This document shows, one piece after another, positions 3,781-12,579 of a stretch of 64,000 nt of DNA. The translations under genes and the position numbers were made by a program. The notes beneath the pieces are model-generated. The model saw only the letters and a program-made list of their open reading frames with translations, was not told the DNA's origin and made no database searches. The stretch's first letter is position 1. Each line of letters opens with the position of its first letter. The DNA is from Gammaproteobacteria bacterium (GTDB lineage: Bacteria; Pseudomonadota; Gammaproteobacteria; Natronospirales; JAJUFS01): contig DASVDI010000006.1 of NCBI GenBank assembly GCA_036381175.1, forward strand, positions 47,237 to 111,236, in the 5' to 3' direction.

Positions 3781-4557
3781 TCAGTCGGCAGCAATGATCA
3801 CGCGATCGCCGCTGTCCAGGTCAACAGCAAATATCCGATAGCCAGCATCGCCTGAGCCAATGACAAATGCGACGCGGGACGGTGTGTGAAGTGCGAAAGA
3901 ACTCAGGTCGCCCATGTAGGGACCTTGGCCAACCGTTGGTCCTGACACAATGAACCGGTCGCCACTCGCGGGGTCAACTCTGAACAGTGCGCCCTCGGCC
4001 TCACCGGATGCCAGCACGACCTCTTCTTCCTGCCAGTATCGAACCTCAGAAATGGAACTTAATATCGGACCGTCGCCCGCCGAGACAATGGTTCGATCGC
4101 CGGTCGCAGGATCGACCTTGAAAACAACGTTGCCGAGCGCGTCTTCGCCATTCGTAAACAGATCTCCCGTCGTTTCATCGATGGTGACGCTGTCAAGTTC
4201 ATCGAACACCGGACCTACGCCAGTTGCGGCATCGGAGATGATTGTCCGATCTCCGCCTGGCAACGTGACGGAATAGATTTTTCGGTCGGCTTCCGCCGAC
4301 GCAACGTAAATAACCCCCGAGGCAGGATCTCTCGTGACGCCCAAGGCATTGAAAACGGGGCCGGACCCCGTGCCCGTGTCGTTCGACAGCGAGATCCGAT
4401 TTCCATTTGCCATCGCAACAGCCGAGATCTGATTATGGTTTGCGACCAGCAGCTCGCCATCGTCACCAATAGCTATTCCGCGAATGGAGTTGAGCGCAGG
4501 GCCATCCCCCACATCCGGCTCCCGCGACAACACCGTGCGCTGAGCGGTTTCCAGGGT
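3781..4557 (-). pseudogene. beta-propeller lipoprotein, C-terminal fragment (downstream of frameshift)
   Basis: Six ~45-aa repeat units, each ending in x(D/L)xxxGDRx(I/V)(I/V)S (DPATGDRTIVS, DPASGDRFIVS, DLDSGDRVIIA and others). The frame stays open back to 4557 and continues the repeat begun in ORF 4463..5389. Confidence 0.6.
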
Positions 4558-5389
4558 CTAGTTTGTAGACAGTGTCATTAATTCCACCATAGAAGACGCT
4601 CGAACCATCTGGCGAAATTTCCGAACCCTGAATCCCGGACGACATCGGTTCACCACTTCCCACCGTTGCACTTGTCGTGTCGATCACCAGTTCACGAACC
4701 GAAATATTTTTGCTTGTGTCTTCGGCTCGCACTTCGATCTGATTGGCGCCAGCCGACAACGGCATGTCGAAATGCCAGTTGCCGGTTGCCGGATCGGGCG
4801 AAACGATCGTGCCGCCAACGGTGAGCGTTTCCAGCGCCTGGTCCTGGACCGTTCCTCGAACACGAATTGATGTGACATTCGTGATTCCGAGTGCGGGTGG
4901 GAAATGCACCGCGAGTTCGGGCGATTCCTCGTCTGCCTTCGTGGTTACTTCGAATACAGCCGACACCGAAGGCTCGCCCGCAAAGAACTCACCGCTCGCA
5001 ACACCCTCCGGCGTGTCCGAGGCCTGCAGGCGAATGACAACAACGTCGCCATTCTGCACGGTGCGGTCCAGGTGATTGTCCTGCTCGACGCCGTTTATCA
5101 GCAGCACGAATCCTGCCGTGAGGTCCGCGAGACTTGCAGGAACGAGTTCGCCGTCATCAAGCCCCGCGATAGTCACGCTGGCTTCGTGGAATTCGCCGGG
5201 GTTTGCATCCACCACGGCAGCAAAACTGAATGCGTCGGGCGTGCGATCCGCCACGGGCGGAGTTGTTCCGGGCGGAGTGACGCCCGGTGGATCATTGCCG
5301 CAACCGGCGGCTGCGAGTAGAGCGGTCAACAGGAATGCGTTTACAAGGTGCCTGATATTCATGGGAATCCTCCGTGATCGGGCGTTCAA
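4463..5389 (-). pseudogene. beta-propeller lipoprotein, N-terminal fragment (lipobox, Pro/Thr linker, Ig-like region)
   Basis: Signal peptide plus lipobox (LLAAAGC), a PPGVTPPGTTPP linker and a beta-rich region. The sense reading ends near VYKLD, after which the frame runs into unrelated sequence. Confidence 0.6.
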
Positions 5390-5572
5390 CCGGCGCTCAT
5401 TCTCTCGCCGCCCTCAGGCACTTCCCCTCAGGCTTTCCCTGATTTTCCCGAAAGGCCTCGCAAAACCTTCACCGTCGTGCCCGATAGATACCTGATGGGA
5501 GATTGCGACACCGCGCGTGACACTGCGGTACTGCGATGTGTGTTCGTGTTGCGGGGAAGGGACAGCAAGATT

Positions 5573-5606: not shown

Positions 5607-5659
5607 GAAGACTGCGATGCGTGTTCGTCGGGGGAGACAGGGTCAAACAAGGGGCATTC

Positions 5660-7075
5660 ATGCGCGCGTTCCGCTGGCGCTCCATCAACGTGCTGGTCGT
5701 TGTCGGCTTTGCCGTGGTCGGCCTGCCGCTGGTTGCGGCCATTTTGCTGAGCACGATTTACCTGGAGCGCCTCACGCTCATCAGCCAGGCGACGGTGGTG
5801 ACGGGCATCGAAGGCACGCGTCAGGGCCGGATTCTCGGCGAGGAGCTGACGGCGATGGAACGCTACGCGCGCCAGTACGAAATCCTGCAGGAACCGGCGC
5901 TGCTTGAATTGTTCCAGCGCCGCCGCGAACGTTTCGAGGCCGCCGCCGAATCCTTGCGCGGCGTGTTCACGGATGCCGAACTCGATGCGCTGATTGCCGC
6001 GTTGCTCTCGAACTCGCGCACGCTTTCCATAGCGAACGTATCGGAAGATGCTTTCGGCGGCGTTTCGGAACGTTTCGCCACGCTGCTTGAGCAGGCGATC
6101 GCGGTGAACAACCGCGTGCGCGCGCTTACCGAGGCGCGCATGGAGGCGATGCAGACGCAATCCGAAAGCATTCAGCAACGCCTGGTATGGCAGGCGACGG
6201 GAGTGATCGTGATTGCGCTGGTGCTCGCGGTGGTTTTCACGCTGATGATTTCGCGCGCGGTGCGCCAGCTCGCCGGTGCGATCAAGCGTCTCGGCGAAGG
6301 ACGTTTCGAACACGGCATCGACGTGCGCGGCCCCGCTGATTTCGAGCAGCTTGGCGGACAGCTTGACTGGTTGCGGCGGCGGCTCCAAACGGTGGAAGAA
6401 GACAAGAGCGCATTTCTGCGCAACATCTCGCACGAACTCAAGACGCCGCTCGCAAACATTCGCGAGGGCAGCGAACTGCTGACGGATGGCGCAGCCGGCG
6501 CGCTGACGGCAGAGCAGCGCGAAGTGGCGGACATCCTGCGCGAGAACAGCCTGCGCTTGCAGTCGCAGATCGAGAACCTTCTTAACTTCAGTGCGTGGCA
6601 AAACCTGCGCACGCCGCTTCGACGCGAACCCGTGCGCCTCGATGAACTCGTGGAGCGCGTGCTCGAACGCAATCGCCTGCCGATCCACGCGCGCCAGTTG
6701 CGCGTACTTACCGATCTCAATGACGTAACGGTTGCCGGCGATCCGCAGAAACTGGAAGTGATGATCGAGAATCTTGTTTCGAATGCCGTGAAGTATTCGC
6801 CCGTGAAAGGACGCTTGCACATTCGCATCGAACGCCGCGGACGCATGGCGCGCCTGCTGGTTGCTGACGACGGCCCCGGAATCGAGCCGGATGAACGCAA
6901 GCGCGTGTTTCGCGCGTTTTACCAGGGGCGGCGGCAGGCGGAAAGCCATGTACATGGCACGGGTCTTGGTTTGTCCGTGGTGCAGGAATGCGTTCGCACG
7001 CACCGCGGCAAGGTCACCATCATTGACGGAGAAACCCATGGCGCGACTTTTCTTGTCGAACTGCCATCGAAGTGA
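5660..7075 (+). CDS. sensor histidine kinase, GlrK/QseE-like
   Basis: Two TM segments flank a ~150-aa periplasmic region, followed by HAMP, an H-box (SHELKTPL) and an HATPase_c domain (G-boxes DDGPGI, GTGLGLS). It is the first gene of an HK-lipoprotein-sigma54 RR triad. Start chosen at MRAFRW after an AAGGGG RBS. Confidence 0.85.
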   Translation: MRAFRWRSINVLVVVGFAVVGLPLVAAILLSTIYLERLTLISQATVVTGIEGTRQGRILGEELTAMERYARQYEILQEPALLELFQRRRERFEAAAESLRGVFTDAELDALIAALLSNSRTLSIANVSEDAFGGVSERFATLLEQAIAVNNRVRALTEARMEAMQTQSESIQQRLVWQATGVIVIALVLAVVFTLMISRAVRQLAGAIKRLGEGRFEHGIDVRGPADFEQLGGQLDWLRRRLQTVEEDKSAFLRNISHELKTPLANIREGSELLTDGAAGALTAEQREVADILRENSLRLQSQIENLLNFSAWQNLRTPLRREPVRLDELVERVLERNRLPIHARQLRVLTDLNDVTVAGDPQKLEVMIENLVSNAVKYSPVKGRLHIRIERRGRMARLLVADDGPGIEPDERKRVFRAFYQGRRQAESHVHGTGLGLSVVQECVRTHRGKVTIIDGETHGATFLVELPSK

Positions 7076-7082
7076 TCGCGGC

Positions 7083-7733
7083 ATGAGCGGTGCCGCGCGC
7101 CTGCTGCTGCCGCTGCTGCTTGTGACGCTCGGCGCCTGCGCAAGTCTACGCGGCGATGACGCGGCCGAATGGCCCGAAGGCAACGACAACGTGGCGGGAC
7201 ATTATCTGCTCGGCTTGCGCGAATACCTGGCGAAACCGGCCGGCAAGCAGGCGGTGCATCGCGAGCAACTGCGCGTTGCGGCTGAACGCGGCAATCCGGC
7301 GGCAATGCTCGAATACGCGTTTGCACTTTCCGTTGACCGCGATGATCGAGAAAGTCTTGAACGCGCGCGCGCACTTTTCGAATCGTTGCTGGTCGCGCCC
7401 GATCCCCTGCCCGTCGCGCTCGACGCGTTGACGCGCTTGCAACTCGGCCAGGTGATCGACCGGCTTGAGCGAATGCGCGCGAACGACGAGCTGAACCTCG
7501 CGGTGCGCATCGGCGCCAACGAATTGAAAACCTGTCTTGTGCGCCTGGATGAAACCGAGATCCAGCGCGAAGACATGCGCAAGCAACTCGCGGAGGTGCG
7601 CCGCAAGCTCGATGCGCTGACACGCATCGAGCAAACCGTGAATCACGGGCAAGACACGAATGACGATCAACAGAACCAGGAAAACAGGGAGAACGAGGAT
7701 GCCGAGCGGCAACCAGATACTGCTCGTCGATGA
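7083..7733 (+). CDS. QseG/YfhG-like lipoprotein connector (coiled-coil, Q/N/E-rich tail)
   Basis: Lipoprotein signal LLLVTLGAC, a helical or coiled-coil body and a charged Gln/Asn-rich C-terminus. Its position between kinase and regulator matches the E. coli glrK-yfhG-glrR arrangement. Confidence 0.6.
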   Translation: MSGAARLLLPLLLVTLGACASLRGDDAAEWPEGNDNVAGHYLLGLREYLAKPAGKQAVHREQLRVAAERGNPAAMLEYAFALSVDRDDRESLERARALFESLLVAPDPLPVALDALTRLQLGQVIDRLERMRANDELNLAVRIGANELKTCLVRLDETEIQREDMRKQLAEVRRKLDALTRIEQTVNHGQDTNDDQQNQENRENEDAERQPDTARR

Positions 7734-9054
7734 CGATCCGGGCCTGCTCAGGCTTTTGAGCATGCGGCTGGAAAGCAGCGGCTACAAAGTGCGCACCGCC
7801 GCCGATGGAAGGCACGCGCTATCCGAAGTCGCAGCGGCGCGACCCGATCTCGTGATCACGGATCTTCGCATGGAACCGATGAACGGTCTTGAGCTGCTGG
7901 ATGCGCTCGGCCGCGAGGCACCGGGACTGCCCGTGATACTCATCACCGCGCACGGCAGCATTCCCGATGCGGTACATGCGACACAGAACGGTGCGTTCGG
8001 TTTTTTGACGAAACCGGTGGAGAAGGATGAACTGCTCGCGCAGGTCGGGCGCGCGATCGGTGCAAGCAGCAGTGCGAATGCGCAGGGCCAATCGAGATCG
8101 GATGCGTGGCGCGCGGATATCGTCACGTGCAGTGGTCGCATGGAAGAAGTGCTGGCGCAGGCGCGCATGGCGGCGGGCACGGACGTTTCCGTACTCATCA
8201 GTGGCGAGAGCGGCACCGGCAAGGAATTGCTCGCGCGCGCGATTCATCGCGCGAGTTCACGCGCACACAAACCTTTCATTGCGGTGAACTGCGGCGCGAT
8301 CCCGGAATCGCTGCTCGAATCCGAATTGTTTGGTCACGAGAAAGGCGCGTTCACGGGTGCGGTGCAGGCACGCGCCGGTCTCGTGCAGGAAGCCGACGGC
8401 GGCACCTTGTTTCTCGATGAAATCGGTGACATGCCGCCAACCGCGCAAGTGAAACTGCTGCGCATGCTGCAGGAAGGCACGGTGCGGCGCGTCGGCAGCG
8501 CGCGCGATACACACGTTGATATCCGCGTTGTGTCGGCGACTCATCATGATCTTCGCCAGTCGATTGAATCCGGCGATTTTCGCGAGGATCTTTACTACCG
8601 CCTGAATGTCGTCAATTTGCGCCTGCCACCGTTGCGCGAGCGGCGCGAAGACATTCCATTACTGGCGACACATTTTCTCGAACACCTCACCGGACCCGAA
8701 GACAGGCCGCGGAAAATGTTCGCACCCGCCGCTTTGGAAACACTGTTGCGCGGCGACTGGCCAGGCAACGTGCGCGAGCTGCGCAATTTCATCGAACGAA
8801 GCGCGGCATTGACGCCGAGCAAGCTGATCTCCGCCGGGCAAGTGCGACGATTGCTCGACGAGCACGGCAACGGATTGCCCTCGCTCGCGGATGCGCGCGA
8901 TGCCTTCACCCGACAATACCTCTGCCAGTTGTTGCGAGTAACGCACGGCAATGTTTCGCGCGCTTCGCGTCTTGCGCATCGCAATCGCACAGATTTCTAC
9001 AAATTGTTGAAACGGTTTCATCTTGATCCGGCGCAATTCAAGAACCATTCGTGA
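7699..9054 (+). CDS. sigma-54-dependent response regulator, GlrR/QseF-like (REC-AAA+-Fis HTH)
   Basis: REC domain (LLVDDDPG...ITDLRM), Walker A GESGTGKE, the sigma-54 contact motif GAFTGA and a C-terminal Fis-type HTH. Confidence 0.9.
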
Positions 9055-9202
9055 ATTGCGTCGCTCGCCTGCGACAAAAAAAATCAATCTTCTCAATCAT
9101 GTGAAACTGCCGCCGTCAGAACGTTGGCGACAGGCGACGTTTACGTGAGCGCGAGACGATGCATTGGTGCGGTTTACGCCGCGATTGCAGCGTTTTCGAT
9201 CT

Positions 9203-9218
9203 CGGCACGCATATTGCA
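9203..9218 (+). promoter_or_regulatory. sigma-54 (-24/-12) promoter
   Basis: CGGCACGCATATTGCA matches YGGCACG-N4-TTGCW with exact GG-N10-GC spacing. It lies ~55 nt upstream of the ATG at 9274 and directly downstream of the sigma-54 activator gene. Confidence 0.7.
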
Positions 9219-9273
9219 CTAACTCCAGTGAACCTTTCTGGTTCGCGCAAACCTACAACTGGAGGTCACACCC

Positions 9274-9543
9274 ATGAAGAAACTGATGATGCTTTTCCTC
9301 GCCGGCCTGTTCTCCGCTGGCGTTGCTGTTGCCAACGAAGGCGACAAAGTCAATTTCGACCAGCTTGACCAGGATGGCGACGGTCAGTTGAGCCGTACTG
9401 AAGTGGCGCAGAACGCCGAACTTGCCGCGCAGTTCAGCACGATCGATGCCAACGGCGATGGCTACCTGGACCAGAACGAAGCGAAGAGCGCCGAGTCCCA
9501 GGGTCAGCAGCAGGAAGACCAGAGCATGGGCGAGGACTACTGA
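9274..9543 (+). CDS. secreted EF-hand calcium-binding protein (2 loops)
   Basis: Signal peptide MKKLMMLFLAGLFSAGVAVA. Canonical 12-residue loops DQDGDGQLSRTE and DANGDGYLDQNE. RBS TGGAGG. Confidence 0.85.
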   Translation: MKKLMMLFLAGLFSAGVAVANEGDKVNFDQLDQDGDGQLSRTEVAQNAELAAQFSTIDANGDGYLDQNEAKSAESQGQQQEDQSMGEDY

Positions 9544-9783
9544 GTCACAGACCTGTCTGGTAATTGAACATGGCGCGGCGCATACGCCAACCGGGATTCG
9601 CATCGTTGAACGTGTGTCCGCGCCTTTCTTTTGATCTTCACTCGCACACTACATGGCGCGGCCTTTCGATCATTGCTGCCGCGCTTGTTATGGCCACGAT
9701 TCAGGCCGCAATCCGGATTGCCGGATTCTGACAGCCCGATTTTTGAAAGTTATTGACCGACTGCCTCGGCAGGTCCCCCCGTT

Positions 9784-9811
9784 GCCCCGCTACCCCGGCG
9801 GGGCTCTTTTT
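9784..9811 (+). terminator. rho-independent terminator (orphan position)
   Basis: GCCCCGC-7nt-GCGGGGC followed by TCTTTTT. It lies 240 nt after the stop at 9543 and 170 nt before the next gene. Confidence 0.6.
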
Positions 9812-9979
9812 ATCTGAAGCGCGAGGGGACCTGGAATGGCGGTCGCACGCAGAGGTTCGAACTGCCGTGTTGAAACTTCAACGCACAACAACCATTTCGA
9901 TTTCGCGGGCAGGGAAAGCGTTTTCTGTTCGGCGACTTTCGGATTTTGACAAAAGCTCCCACGGTACTGGAGGTAGAAA

Positions 9980-10558
9980 ATGATGACTCGACGCCTTGGA
10001 ATTCTGACAACGTTTGCAACACTGGGCGCCACGCTGGCGGTAACGCCGATAGCGGCGAACGCGGATTCGCTGTTCGATGACGACATCGGTCCGTACGCGG
10101 GCGTGGGTATTGGTTATGGCACTTTCGAGAACGAAGACTTTCTGACCGAGGACAACGATCTGCGTGATGACCGGATGACCTGGCAGGCCTACCTCGGCGC
10201 CAATTTCACGAACTGGTTCGGTATCGAGGCCGGTTACGTCGACTTCGGCGAGATCGACGATGAAGGCGGTTTTCTTGACGCCAATGGCGTGACCGCTGCG
10301 GTTGCGTTTCATATTCCCGTGCATGAATCCGTCAGCCTGTCATTGCGTGGCGGCCAGATGTGGTGGGATTCCACCGGCACTGCCGTTGCCCCGCTTGATG
10401 AATTCGAATTCGATGCAGACGGCGAGGATCCGTTCTACGGCGTCGGTGCACATTTCGGCAGCGGTGAAGGCGTTGGCGTGAATATTCGCTATGACCGCTA
10501 TGAAATGGGTGAAATGGATATCGACATGCCGTCGGTGAATCTCGAGTTCGGTTTCTAG
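9980..10558 (+). CDS. small outer-membrane beta-barrel protein (OmpA-like/OmpX-like barrel)
   Basis: Signal peptide ending in AANA, alternating aromatic/Gly beta-strand pattern, and a C-terminal ...NLEFGF with terminal Phe typical of OMPs. Confidence 0.7.
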   Translation: MMTRRLGILTTFATLGATLAVTPIAANADSLFDDDIGPYAGVGIGYGTFENEDFLTEDNDLRDDRMTWQAYLGANFTNWFGIEAGYVDFGEIDDEGGFLDANGVTAAVAFHIPVHESVSLSLRGGQMWWDSTGTAVAPLDEFEFDADGEDPFYGVGAHFGSGEGVGVNIRYDRYEMGEMDIDMPSVNLEFGF

Positions 10559-10584
10559 AACGCATTGCGTTGCGTTACGGAATC

Positions 10585-10611
10585 AGCCCTGCCTTGTGCA
10601 GGGCTTTTTTT
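10585..10611 (+). terminator. rho-independent terminator
   Basis: AGCCCTGC-CTTGT-GCAGGGCT followed by a T7 run. Confidence 0.8.
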
Positions 10612-10805
10612 GCGCGGCGAGTTAACGGAACACGTCACTGGGAATTCCGCTGCGCGGGAATGGCGGTTTCGCTCCTCACGCTTCTGTCGCGACAATAACC
10701 ACACGAAAAACCTCCGATTCCCGCTCCTGGCATTTAATCCGGCACGCCGAGTCCCAATTGAAAAACTCATCGGCTGAAAATACCGAGAGCGAAAGGAGGT
10801 ACATC

Positions 10806-11978
10806 ATGCAAAGACTCACGTCACTCATTCCATTCACGCTGGCAGGACTTCTTGTCGGCAGCAGCGCGCTGGCCCAGGGGGCCATCGATTTTGATCGTTA
10901 TGACACCAATGGCGACGGTTATTTGACGCAAAGCGAATGGAGCGCCGTCAACAACGTGACGGCGACCTTCGATTCCATCGACACGAATCGCGATGGGCGC
11001 CTCAGCGAAGGCGAAGTGGAAGCCGGTGTTTCTGCCGAGAAGCGAAATGCCAGCCAGCAGGACATTTCGCAACAGTCCGGCGGACAACAGGGAAACATGA
11101 GCACTCGGATGTCGGGCCAGACATCCGGCCAGACATCGGGCCAGACCTCCAACCAGGCATCAACCCAGGTGTCCGGCGTCGAGAGCCAGCAACGCAACGT
11201 GAACATGTACGATACGGACAACGATGGACGTGTCAGCCGTGATGAAGCGCAGAAGGACGGCGAGCTGGTGACATATTTCGTGATCTGGGACACGAACCGG
11301 GACGGCTTCATTGACCAGACCGAAATGGCCGAGGCCAACCAGCAGCCGCAAGACAGCCGCCGCAATGTCGAGCAAGGCGGTCAGGCAGGAAACGCGGCGC
11401 AGCAGTCCGGGAATCAGGGTGCGGCCAGTTTCGAGCAGGCCGATGCGAATCGCGACAATCGCGTCAGCCGCAGCGAAGCGAACGATGCGAATGCGGAAAC
11501 CATTGTCATCTATTTCGATACGCTCGACACGAACCGCGATGGTTTCGTGGACCGCAATGAAGCCAGCGCGAACGACGATTACTGGGAGATGAACGAAACC
11601 GATACGAACGCATTCGACAACGCGAACCGGTTCGACACCTACGACATTGATGATGACGGTTTTCTCGATGAGTCAGAGGCGTTTGAAGACAATTACCTCG
11701 AAGACAACTTTGACGTCCTTGACGTGAACGACGACGGTTTGCTTGGCGAGAATGAAATCGACGACGACTGGATGGAATGGAACGAAGACGCCTTCGACAC
11801 CTACGACATCAATGACGACGGCCTGCTCGATGAAGAAGAAGTCGTTGATTACGACTACATCGATTACAGCTTTGACGACTGGGATATGGACGACGACGGC
11901 TATGTCTCTGAAGACGAAGCCGATGTCGGCTGGTTTGACGACAACGACGACGGGGTGTTCGACGAGGACGACTGGTAA
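10806..11978 (+). CDS. secreted multi-EF-hand protein (10-11 loops, extremely acidic)
   Basis: ATG follows a GAAAGGAGG RBS. Signal peptide ...SSALAQG. Loops include DTNGDGYLTQSE, DTNRDGRLSEGE, DTDNDGRVSRDE, DTNRDGFIDQTE, DANRDNRVSRSE, DTNRDGFVDRNE, DIDDDGFLDESE, DVNDDGLLGENE, DINDDGLLDEEE and DMDDDGYVSEDE, plus a partial DDNDDGVFDEDD. Confidence 0.85.
   Translation: MQRLTSLIPFTLAGLLVGSSALAQGAIDFDRYDTNGDGYLTQSEWSAVNNVTATFDSIDTNRDGRLSEGEVEAGVSAEKRNASQQDISQQSGGQQGNMSTRMSGQTSGQTSGQTSNQASTQVSGVESQQRNVNMYDTDNDGRVSRDEAQKDGELVTYFVIWDTNRDGFIDQTEMAEANQQPQDSRRNVEQGGQAGNAAQQSGNQGAASFEQADANRDNRVSRSEANDANAETIVIYFDTLDTNRDGFVDRNEASANDDYWEMNETDTNAFDNANRFDTYDIDDDGFLDESEAFEDNYLEDNFDVLDVNDDGLLGENEIDDDWMEWNEDAFDTYDINDDGLLDEEEVVDYDYIDYSFDDWDMDDDGYVSEDEADVGWFDDNDDGVFDEDDW
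11112..11147 (+). repeat. 12-bp tandem repeat x3 encoding SGQT-SGQT-SGQT
   Basis: tcgggccagaca / tccggccagaca / tcgggccagacc, located inside the Q/S-rich linker of the multi-EF-hand gene. Confidence 0.8.
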
Positions 11979-11998
11979 CCGCGACCGTTGAGGAAACC

Positions 11999-12028
11999 GG
12001 GCAGGCGTTTTCGCCTGCCCGTTGTTTT
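11999..12028 (+). terminator. rho-independent terminator
   Basis: GGGCAGGCG-TTTT-CGCCTGCCC followed by GTTGTTTT. Confidence 0.8.
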
Positions 12029-12072
12029 CGAAATGTCGTTTTGAAGATTCTGTGCTTGCGAGGAGAGTCACC

Positions 12073-12579
12073 ATGATGAAGATTCCAGGACTATTGCTGC
12101 TGGCCGGCCTGCTTTGTGCCGGGAACGCGCTTGCGGAAAATGAAATCGGCGATCCCGTGGATTTCGAAAAGTATGACGCCAACGAAGACGGCTACCTGAC
12201 GGAAACCGAATGGTCGGAGGTGCCGGTTCGCGTCGAGTTCCACGACGTGGATGTGAACCGTGATGGCCAGGTCGAGGAAGCCGAACTGTTGCAGGGCTAC
12301 CCGTGGCATGTGAATGAATTCGTTGACGAGGAGCCCTACAACGATGCCGATCCGGAAGGCTCGTTCGAGTCCTTTGACGCGAACGACGACGGCCTTCTTG
12401 ATGAGAACGAATTCACCGATGCCGGCTGGACGGACGATGACTTTGACATCCGGGATGCTGATGACGACGGTTTCCTGGATGAAAATGAAGTCAGCGACGA
12501 CTGGTTTGAAGAAGATGGCGCTGTCAGTGCTGATGACGAAGGCGCGGTGGAGGATGACGGCGGTTTGCTTGACGAATGA
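12073..12579 (+). CDS. secreted EF-hand protein (4 loops, acidic)
   Basis: Signal peptide MMKIPGLLLLAGLLCAGNALA. Loops DANEDGYLTETE, DVNRDGQVEEAE, DANDDGLLDENE and DADDDGFLDENE. RBS GAGGAG. Confidence 0.85.
   Translation: MMKIPGLLLLAGLLCAGNALAENEIGDPVDFEKYDANEDGYLTETEWSEVPVRVEFHDVDVNRDGQVEEAELLQGYPWHVNEFVDEEPYNDADPEGSFESFDANDDGLLDENEFTDAGWTDDDFDIRDADDDGFLDENEVSDDWFEEDGAVSADDEGAVEDDGGLLDE

Follow-up and report, generated by a model that had tools for sequence, protein, structure and literature searches.

We analyzed a 64 kb stretch of gammaproteobacterial DNA (contig DASVDI010000006.1; hereafter 'the window') in which genes for a two-component system (TCS) of the QseE-QseG-QseF type, also named GlrK-QseG-GlrR, lie directly upstream of genes for secreted EF-hand proteins. 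Seven genes, all on the forward strand, make up the locus: genes for a sensor histidine kinase (HK; 5660-7075), a 216-residue lipoprotein (7083-7733), and a sigma-54 response regulator (RR; 7699-9054; 451 residues as annotated), followed by genes for an 89-residue EF-hand protein, EF1 (9274-9543), a 192-residue outer-membrane beta-barrel, OMP (9980-10558), and two larger EF-hand proteins, EF2 (390 residues; 10806-11978) and EF3 (168 residues; 12073-12579). The original prediction, made from the letters of the window, had described the same seven open reading frames (ORFs) with their domains, had counted signal peptides in four of them, and had found 16-17 EF-hand loops of canonical form; all of these were recovered in place. 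As read from the translations, a typical Sec signal peptide opens each of the four downstream proteins: that is, EF1, OMP, EF2, and EF3. Identical proteins are public as HEX7046142-148, named either hypothetical or EF-hand, from a 223 kb contig of a soil-type metagenome-assembled genome (MAG), 'Gammaproteobacteria bacterium'. Comparison loci from other genomes and from metagenomes are designated by L-numbers (L001, L086, and so on).

The triad is a QseE-QseG-QseF-type system

The HK has the domain order of QseE/GlrK: a transmembrane (TM) segment, a periplasmic helical sensor (a four-helix sensor in QseE/GlrK), a second TM segment, and HAMP, HisKA, and HATPase_c domains, each of the last three recognized by Pfam. 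HK residues 7-469 match 9m08_C, the chain that represents the kinase in the solved structure of QseG with QseE, with an E value of 4.7e-67, a full-length match to QseE; the runner-up match, CpxA (1e-28), covers the kinase core only. The sensor part alone (N-terminal 213 residues) matches 9m08_C with an E value of 4.8e-11, with MERyaRQY aligned with MERsyRQY, and the alignment places HK residues R68 and R71 opposite the Arg-x-x-Arg motif of QseE. We take the motif in 9m08_C to be R70/R73 of Salmonella QseE, the conserved sensor arginines that are reported to contact QseG (PMC12691602).

The RR carries a REC domain with D55, a GAFTGA motif, and a C-terminal helix-turn-helix (HTH), and is recognized by Pfam as Response_reg, Sigma54_activat (E 8e-74), and AAA_lid_14; a longer ORF, starting at 7660, is possible. 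Its best NCBIfam family is GlrR, with 585.6 bits vs. 432.8 bits for NtrC, a lead of ~150 bits. Public relatives of the RR at 58-61% identity carry the JGI name GlrR, and the C-terminal HTH is conserved over 13 aligned GlrR-type loci.

The helical protein encoded between the HK and the RR is a predicted outer-membrane lipoprotein, with lipobox LGAC (...LVTLGAC19AS...) and C-terminal sequence RRKLDALTRIEQTV; an alternative start, at 7038, matches the start annotated in the relative L001. No Pfam or NCBIfam family was found for this protein, and, as a single query, it gave no match to solved QseG. A profile of its non-enteric positional homologues gave a marginal match to QseG (E 0.02), confined to the C-terminal 50 residues; QseG's C-terminal region is the part that binds QseE (PMC12691602). 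A profile including the protein from Arsenophonus matched solved QseG (7x6f) with an E value of 1.5e-21. The lipobox Cys and a C-terminal motif, (K/R)-(L/V)-D-A-L-x-x-I-E, are kept in the positional counterparts of eight loci, including that of Arsenophonus, and the C-terminal RRKLDALTRIEQTV of the window protein aligns with ...RKLENLTDIERQLS of QseG. (A regular-expression call of QseG-like genes in metagenome loci proved too strict, at 13 of 53, and supplies no denominator here.) As judged from its position and from these profiles, the lipoprotein is a remote, positional relative of QseG.

We conclude that the triad is a genuine QseE/GlrK-QseG-QseF/GlrR-type system, with a kinase matched to QseE over its full length, a regulator with GlrR as best family, and a lipoprotein that takes the place of QseG. 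Since qseEGF clusters are already known to be widespread in Gammaproteobacteria, Betaproteobacteria, and Acidithiobacillia (PMC12691602), the triad itself belongs to a known type.

A sigma-54 promoter with two GlrR-type boxes precedes EF1

The site recognized by GlrR, determined by experiment, is TGTCN10GACA and is located upstream of the sigma-54 promoters of glmY and glmZ (PMC3045617). The intergenic region between the RR gene and EF1 contains the elements of a GlrR/QseF target promoter: that is, -24/-12 elements with upstream TGTCN10GACA-like sites. The sigma-54 (-24/-12) promoter, CGGCACGCATATTGCA (9203-9218, forward strand), lies 56 nt 5' of the EF1 ATG and has one mismatch to the consensus TGGCAC-N5-TTGCW, at the first consensus base, which is the least conserved. 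Sites with no more than one mismatch to the sigma-54 consensus number only five in both strands of the window (128 kb), and CGGCACGCATATTGCA is the only sigma-54-like site of the 64 kb with two GlrR-type boxes upstream. Box 1, CGTC-N10-GACA (9059-9076, forward strand), has one mismatch to TGTCN10GACA and is the only such match near the locus; box 2, CGTT-N10-GACG (9122-9139, forward strand), is conserved in position in all five close relatives (L001, L002, L003, L170, and L171). The box centers are 136.5 nt (box 1) and 73.5 nt (box 2) before the -24 GG, so that the boxes are 63 nt apart; the background frequency of GlrR-type boxes is 0.016-0.077 per 260 nt.

Alignment of the window with L001, L002, and L003 (RR identity 90, 81, and 79%) shows that the half-sites of the boxes, the -24/-12 elements, and the distances between them are constant and that the box spacers and the flanks are variable. 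The EF1 promoter and boxes of L170 and L171 follow the same pattern of conservation. In L001, L002, and L003, the promoter lies 149-180 nt past the RR stop codon. Downstream of the promoter, in the predicted 5' untranslated region of EF1, an inverted repeat, GAACC-N5-GGTTC (9230-9244, forward strand; loop tttct in the window), has invariant arms and a variable loop in the window and L001-L003 and could be a stabilizing 5' hairpin or a protein-binding site. The stretch from the boxes to the promoter gave only a partial match to an IHF site (WATCARNNNNTTR); this match, AATCAATCTTCTC, lies between the two boxes, and we place no weight on it.

No convincing sigma-54 promoter or GlrR box was found 5' of OMP, EF2, EF3, or HK in the window. 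An Rfam scan of the 64 kb gave no GlmY, GlmZ, or other RNA family at gathering score; the predicted adjacent target beside this operon is, instead of glmY, a protein-coding gene. The original prediction had proposed that the whole island is wired to the sigma-54 regulator. For EF1, the promoter and two boxes support that wiring; for OMP, EF2, and EF3 it is not, or not yet, supported, and, because these three have their own terminators (see below) and no such promoter, a single module under a single regulator can be claimed for EF1 only.

Upstream of the HK start there is a 35-nt direct repeat (5530-5564 and 5611-5645, forward strand; 74% identical; 81 nt from start to start). The repeat starts with ACTGCGATG(T/C)GTGTTCGT, each copy includes a loose match to TGTT-N10-GACA, and no sigma-54 promoter follows. 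Possibly the repeat serves as an operator through which the TCS operon is autoregulated.

Pairing of GlrR with an EF-hand gene recurs in distant lineages

The adjacency of glrR and an EF-hand gene is kept within the clade and is found again in distant Gamma- and Betaproteobacteria and in metagenomes. At the distant loci (RR identity 52-61%), the glrR stop codon is followed by a sigma-54 promoter with two boxes and then by an EF-hand gene; the spacing of the two boxes is 63-68 nt in most of these loci, and the first gene encodes a signal-peptide protein of 76-115 residues with two EF loops. Promoter and EF-hand gene are both present in L086 (a 4.68 Mb genome), L087 (Thiohalorhabdus methylotrophus), and L010 (a Sulfuriferula MAG), and in five metagenome contigs (L104, L111, L119, L121, and L122). 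At L011, a perfect sigma-54 promoter and a gene for an EF-hand lipoprotein are located 5' of the kinase gene, in the same orientation: that is, in the place that glmY occupies in E. coli. In the enterobacterial-type locus of Arsenophonus (L008), the same place 5' of the kinase gene holds two strict boxes, with a spacing of 63 nt, and then a sigma-54 site. The adjacency is not unique to this genome, and absence of co-occurrence elsewhere, the observation named in advance as counting against the link, is therefore not what we find.

To obtain counts, we used 68 metagenome loci retrieved by the GlrR-specific HTH, each with at least 600 nt of downstream sequence. The promoter with boxes is present at 10 of the 68; an EF-hand ORF is located downstream in 7 of these 10 and in none of the 58 loci lacking the promoter. 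Among 41 loci of non-GlrR sigma-54 activators, no EF-hand ORF was found downstream, and 1.04 Mb of control loci contained no ORF with two or more EF loops. (A scan of the genome collection with the whole RR was swamped by generic AAA+ patterns, with 7 of 80 loci being GlrR-type; the rest served as negative controls.) No nearby target was seen at the GlrR-type loci L088, L012, and L004/L005. We conclude that the pairing of GlrR with an EF-hand gene is recurrent and specific, and is not universal.

Other loci show other local outputs. In a Burkholderiales MAG (L009, 9329-10415), two GlrR-box/sigma-54 promoters past glrR lead to genes for a small lipoprotein of ~90 residues and a 149-residue membrane-anchored protein, both without EF-hands. 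From lineage to lineage, therefore, the system does not have the same local output. In a Spectribacter hydrogenooxidans-type contig (L089, 7364-7880), glrR is directly followed by a pair of GlrR boxes and by a sigma-54 promoter (TGGCACGACTAGTGCT, at 7542), and no gene is called for ~340 nt. The predicted ORF-less transcript gave only chance-level matches to Rfam and may be a GlrR-dependent small RNA (sRNA) outside Enterobacterales. In the Sulfuriferula locus (L010, 10107-10995), the second gene past glrR encodes a fusion of two EF-hand loops with a BON domain, and a gene for a stand-alone BON-like protein is next; the fusion links the EF-hand output to a domain of envelope/osmotic-shock type.

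The counts bear on the alternative that the adjacency is coincidental, with EF-hand genes transcribed independently (from sigma-70 or extracytoplasmic-function (ECF) promoters) and with the sigma-54-like site before EF1 a chance match. Sites with up to two mismatches to the sigma-54 consensus are no commoner in the window than in shuffled sequence (31 vs. 32.7), and three of the four downstream genes have no such site; both points favor coincidence. However, in genomes whose intergenic sequence has otherwise diverged, the promoter and its two boxes keep their positions, the same architecture is found beside EF-hand genes in distant lineages, and the background of EF-hand ORFs in the 1.04 Mb of controls is zero. 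Coincidence is the explanation to which we give the least credence.

EF1, EF2, and EF3 have canonical EF-hand loops

EF1, EF2, and EF3 exceed the curated cut-offs for Pfam EF-hand families (for EF1, EF-hand_5, EF-hand_6, EF-hand_1, and EF-hand_7) and have, respectively, 2, 10, and 4 PS00018 matches, each a canonical 12-residue loop. Loops of this kind have D at position 1, D/N/S at 3, D/N/S/G at 5, G at 6, a hydrophobic residue at 8, and E/D at 12, and lie in pairs between flanking helices. EF1 consists of a single EF-hand pair, with loops DQDGDGQLSRTE and DANGDGYLDQNE separated by 14 residues, and ends in a tail that is acidic. EF2 has 10 loops by strict and 11 by relaxed definition, arranged in pairs joined by Q/S/G-rich linkers, and an extremely acidic, aromatic-rich C-terminal third; its last 130 residues are 44% D+E, 16% F/W/Y, and 1% K+R. 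EF3 has four loops and an acidic tail, with 45% D+E in its C-terminal half. In every EF pair of the three proteins, the inter-loop spacer is 14 residues, and many loops have Asp at position 9; the inter-loop spacer of calmodulin is ~24 residues. The uniform 14-residue spacer suggests that the large EF-hand proteins, EF2 and EF3, arose by repeated duplication of an EF1-like unit.

A word-based search for homologues of EF1 reached only the same clade, with 33 matches at 54-100% identity. An AlphaFold2 model of EF1, built from the clade alignment, has a mean pLDDT of 71, with 85-88 over residues 30-70. Foldseek with the model returned only EF-hand pairs (the C-domain of Entamoeba CaBP1, calmodulin lobes, and lanmodulin), all of them weak matches with E values of at least 3.5e-3. 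The nearest solved proteins by sequence are Entamoeba CaBP1 (1.4e-10) and lanmodulin (1.4e-4). Dockerin or thrombospondin-type repeats were considered and rejected, being without Pfam support. The loops suggest that EF1, EF2, and EF3 bind Ca2+, and the signal peptides that they do so after export, possibly in a buffering or sensing role.

The similarity to lanmodulin raises the question whether the EF-hand proteins bind lanthanides, or another trivalent or hard cation, and not primarily Ca2+. Lanmodulin (LanM) is, like EF1, a small periplasmic protein with short (12-14 residue) spacers, and short spacers together with Asp at loop position 9 are lanmodulin features shared by the proteins of the window, which also show weak NCBIfam LanM matches and resemble LanM (6mi5 and 8fns) weakly in both sequence and fold. 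However, none of the LanM scores (29.8, 45.1, and 17.8 bits) comes near the cut-off of 135 bits; none of the 16-17 loops has the Pro at loop position 2 that characterizes LanM; and the genomic context differs, with no genes for a lanthanide-dependent dehydrogenase or a TonB receptor in the neighborhood. We therefore do not assign the proteins to the lanmodulins, and we consider a lanthanide-binding function highly improbable.

The island of EF-hand and OMP genes is specific to the clade

The OMP gene encodes a small barrel of about eight strands, OmpA/OmpX-like, with a signal peptide, acidic loops, and a C-terminal Phe (...NLEFGF). It exceeds the cut-offs of PF13505 (OMP_b-brl; 48.0 vs. 28.7) and PF01389 (OmpA_membrane; 45.3 vs. 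21), and the protein is weakly similar to the OmpA barrel. In all five close relatives, gene order is the same: glrR, EF1, OMP, one to three more EF-hand genes, a comF-like gene, and an amidase gene. (L003 and metagenome locus L090 have the same sequence coordinates and features.) In every clade member the EF1 orthologue is the first gene past glrR and OMP adjoins EF1; the number and size of the EF-hand genes vary among the five. The suggestion in the original prediction that the island forms a module with its own outer-membrane component thus survives in part: the island, OMP included, is conserved in the clade but is specific to it, and the core shared across lineages is one small EF-hand-pair protein.

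In relatives, the promoter architecture found before EF1 extends to further EF-hand genes. The second small EF-hand gene of L002, L003, L170, and L171 has its own sigma-54 promoter, with zero or one mismatch, and the large EF-hand gene of L002, L003, and L171 has a sigma-54 promoter accompanied by boxes of GlrR type. L003 (centers 136.5 and 73.5) and L171 each have two strict ones there, and L002 has one, at 72.5. The EF2-type genes of L002 and L003 carry CGGCA(C/T)GAA..TTGCG; in the window the aligned sequence before EF2 (10740-10755, forward strand, within the region 10695-10755) keeps the -24 CGGCAC and has lost the -12 GC, with the aligned box shrunk to TGTCGCGACA, an eroded form shared by L001. 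In the window and in its nearest relative, L001, the region upstream of EF2 is apparently a decayed GlrR/sigma-54 promoter. The conserved sequence GGCATTTAATCC(G/T)GC before EF2 was rejected as a sigma-54 promoter because its spacing is GG-N11-GC.

The four downstream genes of the window do not form one tight operon: a terminator scan finds terminator-like hairpins after EF1, OMP, and EF2. EF1 is followed by a conserved double-hairpin block (9761-9810, forward strand; hairpin 9784-9804) that is near-identical in L001, OMP by a terminator-like hairpin at 10585-10605 (forward strand), and EF2 by a strong hairpin at 11998-12021 (forward strand; 10 pairs, 9 of them G-C). The double-hairpin block (CTGCCTCGGCAGGTCCCCCCGTTGCCCCGCT.CCCCGGCGGGGCTCTTTT) is nearly invariant and present in a single copy per locus (L001, 11061-11084; L002, 10834-10857; L003, 7570-7593). 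It precedes the OMP gene in the window and L001 and follows it in L002, L003, and L090, a shift in position that indicates local rearrangement of EF1, OMP, and the terminator.

Between EF1 and its terminator lies a tentative, unannotated ORF of 53 codons (9570-9731, forward strand; MARRIRQPG...GLSIIAAALVMATIQAAIRIAGF) with a hydrophobic C-terminal helix. Its counterpart in L001, of 55 codons, starts and stops at the same positions, shows indels that stay in frame, and likewise has a hydrophobic C-terminal helix, at low identity. The product may be a small membrane protein co-transcribed with EF1.

Elsewhere in the window, on the reverse strand, overlapping ORFs of 308 and 250 residues (3781-5389) correspond to the N- and C-terminal parts of a single 544-residue lipoprotein of L001, with the break near residue 285-293. 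The pair is a frameshift in this assembly, arising from a pseudogene or a sequencing error.

The composition of the island suggests a further alternative: that its products are Ca2+-stabilized structural, matrix, or mineral-interacting envelope proteins (for cell-surface adhesion, for a biofilm matrix, or for controlling the nucleation of CaCO3 or phosphate, in Ca-rich soil), with Ca2+ serving as a structural cofactor and not as the ligand to be managed. The Asp/Glu/aromatic tails of EF2 and EF3 and the Q/S/G linkers are typical of disordered acidic mineral- or matrix-binding proteins; there are weak matches to SPARC_Ca_bdg and DUF7151; a dedicated small OMP with acidic loops is encoded alongside; and the source is apparently a soil-type MAG. 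A structural role leaves unexplained, however, why a single EF-hand pair of 60-70 residues is the partner of the TCS in other lineages, and the locus has no secretion system, and no anchoring motif beyond the Sec signal peptides. We judge a structural role improbable.

Discussion

Analysis in silico establishes the gene identities at this locus, the promoter and operator architecture before EF1, and the recurrence of both across lineages. The interpretation that we favor, and consider probable, is that the triad has a local sigma-54 target, EF1, and that, in the clade of the window, this output has been amplified into an acidic EF-hand island that acts as a Ca2+ sink or buffer in the envelope. 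We infer GlrR binding, sigma-54 dependence, Ca2+ binding, periplasmic location, and physiological role from sequence, and the mechanism we propose is as follows. QseE, activated by QseG, would phosphorylate the GlrR-type regulator; the phosphorylated regulator would bind the boxes at 9059-9076 and 9122-9139 and would then activate sigma-54 RNA polymerase at 9203-9218; the resulting transcript would encode EF1, and possibly also the 53-codon membrane peptide, and would stop at the hairpin at 9784-9804; and EF1 would be exported via Sec and would bind Ca2+ in the periplasm. According to this proposal, a small EF-hand protein would be the conserved output in several non-enteric Gammaproteobacteria and Betaproteobacteria, holding the regulatory niche that glmY holds in Enterobacterales. 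In the clade, the output would have been amplified by duplication of the EF-pair unit with its 14-residue linker, to yield EF2 and EF3, and by addition of the small outer-membrane barrel; EF2, EF3, and the barrel would, most plausibly, provide a high-capacity sink or buffer for divalent cations (Ca2+) in the envelope. The 16-17 loops and the polyacidic tails of the clade proteins fit a cation sink or buffer.

Several observations weigh against the proposal. The RR scores below the equivalog cut-off for GlrR (NF011695; 585.6 vs. 763 bits) and for that reason is to be regarded as a GlrR-type relative, not as an equivalog of the enterobacterial protein. Box 2 of the window is a weak match (CGTT...GACG). 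Such a downstream promoter is absent from 58 of the 68 metagenome GlrR-type loci, and the downstream genes of a sister lineage (L004/L005; RR identity 77%) are unrelated. Given their own terminators and the lack of a recognizable GlrR/sigma-54 promoter, co-regulation of OMP, EF2, and EF3 in this genome is conjectural. Finally, EF-hand proteins could have several roles, of which buffering is but one.

One such role is signaling. ZraP, of the sigma-54 system ZraPSR, and CpxP, of the Cpx system, are TCS-induced small periplasmic proteins, encoded adjacent to the TCS, that feed back on the kinase. By analogy, EF1 could be a Ca2+-dependent periplasmic feedback sensor that acts on QseE and/or QseG and tunes the kinase, with EF2, EF3, and OMP as later add-ons. 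The Zra system, and by its logic CpxP-CpxA-CpxR, resembles the system of the window in being an envelope TCS with an adjacent target for a small periplasmic metal-binding protein, and the Zra regulator, too, is of the sigma-54/NtrC family; ZraP and CpxP differ from EF1 in being helical proteins of the CpxP family, Zn-binding or chaperones, not EF-hand proteins, and Zra and Cpx have no lipoprotein partner. Feedback would account for the fact that the element conserved across distant lineages is one small EF-hand pair and not a high-capacity protein, and for the location of the EF-hand gene, always directly beside the TCS and sometimes upstream in the same orientation (L011). QseEGF, moreover, has no known negative regulatory component (PMC12691602), and a periplasmic EF-hand protein of Caulobacter is reported to act in a regulatory loop with an ECF sigma factor (PMC13171946). 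The expansion in the clade to 16-17 loops with polyacidic tails, however, resembles capacity more than signaling. We regard feedback as a tentative and somewhat unlikely alternative to a sink or buffer. A broader conjecture, which we think unlikely, is that QseE/QseG have their missing periplasmic modulator in the small EF-hand protein, that QseEGF was ancestrally a circuit for sensing Ca2+ or divalent cations and outer-membrane integrity, with a Ca2+-binding protein as its first output and as its feedback element, and that the glmY output of Enterobacterales is a later replacement in the same promoter slot.

The system of the window shares with QseE-QseG-QseF of E. coli, Salmonella, and Yersinia the gene order HK, lipoprotein, RR; a full-length QseE-homologous kinase with the sensor Arg-x-x-Arg; a GlrR-type enhancer-binding protein with the same C-terminal HTH; and a target promoter, directly beside the operon, that comprises sigma-54 -24/-12 elements and TGTC-N10-GACA boxes ~63 nt apart. 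The two differ in the nature of the target, which is a gene for a secreted EF-hand protein here and the sRNA gene glmY (in some genera also glmZ) in enteric bacteria; in the place of the target, downstream of the RR gene here and upstream of the HK gene in enteric bacteria; and in the number of boxes recognized, two here and three in E. coli. They differ also in that the QseG-like protein here is barely recognizable by sequence and the RR here falls below the NCBI GlrR equivalog cut-off.

Exported EF-hand proteins of other bacteria, namely EfhP of P. aeruginosa, CaBP of Caulobacter (PMC13171946), and calsymin of Rhizobium, resemble EF1, EF2, and EF3 in having Sec export, canonical EF loops, and a connection to Ca2+ homeostasis or envelope stress. 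The nearest precedent is Caulobacter CaBP, which forms a regulatory loop with the neighboring regulator gene sigV (PMC13171946). These proteins are encoded by single genes, in contrast to the three EF-hand genes plus OMP, 16-17 loops, and polyacidic tails here, and, in the literature searched, none is reported as a sigma-54 or QseEGF-type target. The original prediction held that no system of this composition had been described, and a full-text literature search, which gave no link of GlrR/QseF or of RpoN/sigma-54 to EF-hand targets, agrees.

QseEF/GlrKR has been studied almost only in enteric pathogens, and its signal is disputed. To our knowledge, sRNA genes and rpoE are the only direct targets that are well defined there. 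The results point to an undescribed, recurrent protein output, outside enteric bacteria, of a known TCS family: in several non-enteric lineages, the same system appears to have a different hard-wired local target, a secreted EF-hand protein. A different hard-wired target in turn provides a testable handle on what the system monitors, which may be Ca2+ or the cation status of the envelope. Little is known about the regulation and function of periplasmic EF-hand proteins in bacteria, and the circuit proposed here is one of the first transcriptional circuits to be predicted for them. For annotation, the signature of GlrR box plus sigma-54 promoter could serve to find local targets of qseEGF clusters across Pseudomonadota, among them candidates for new sRNAs like that suggested in Spectribacter.

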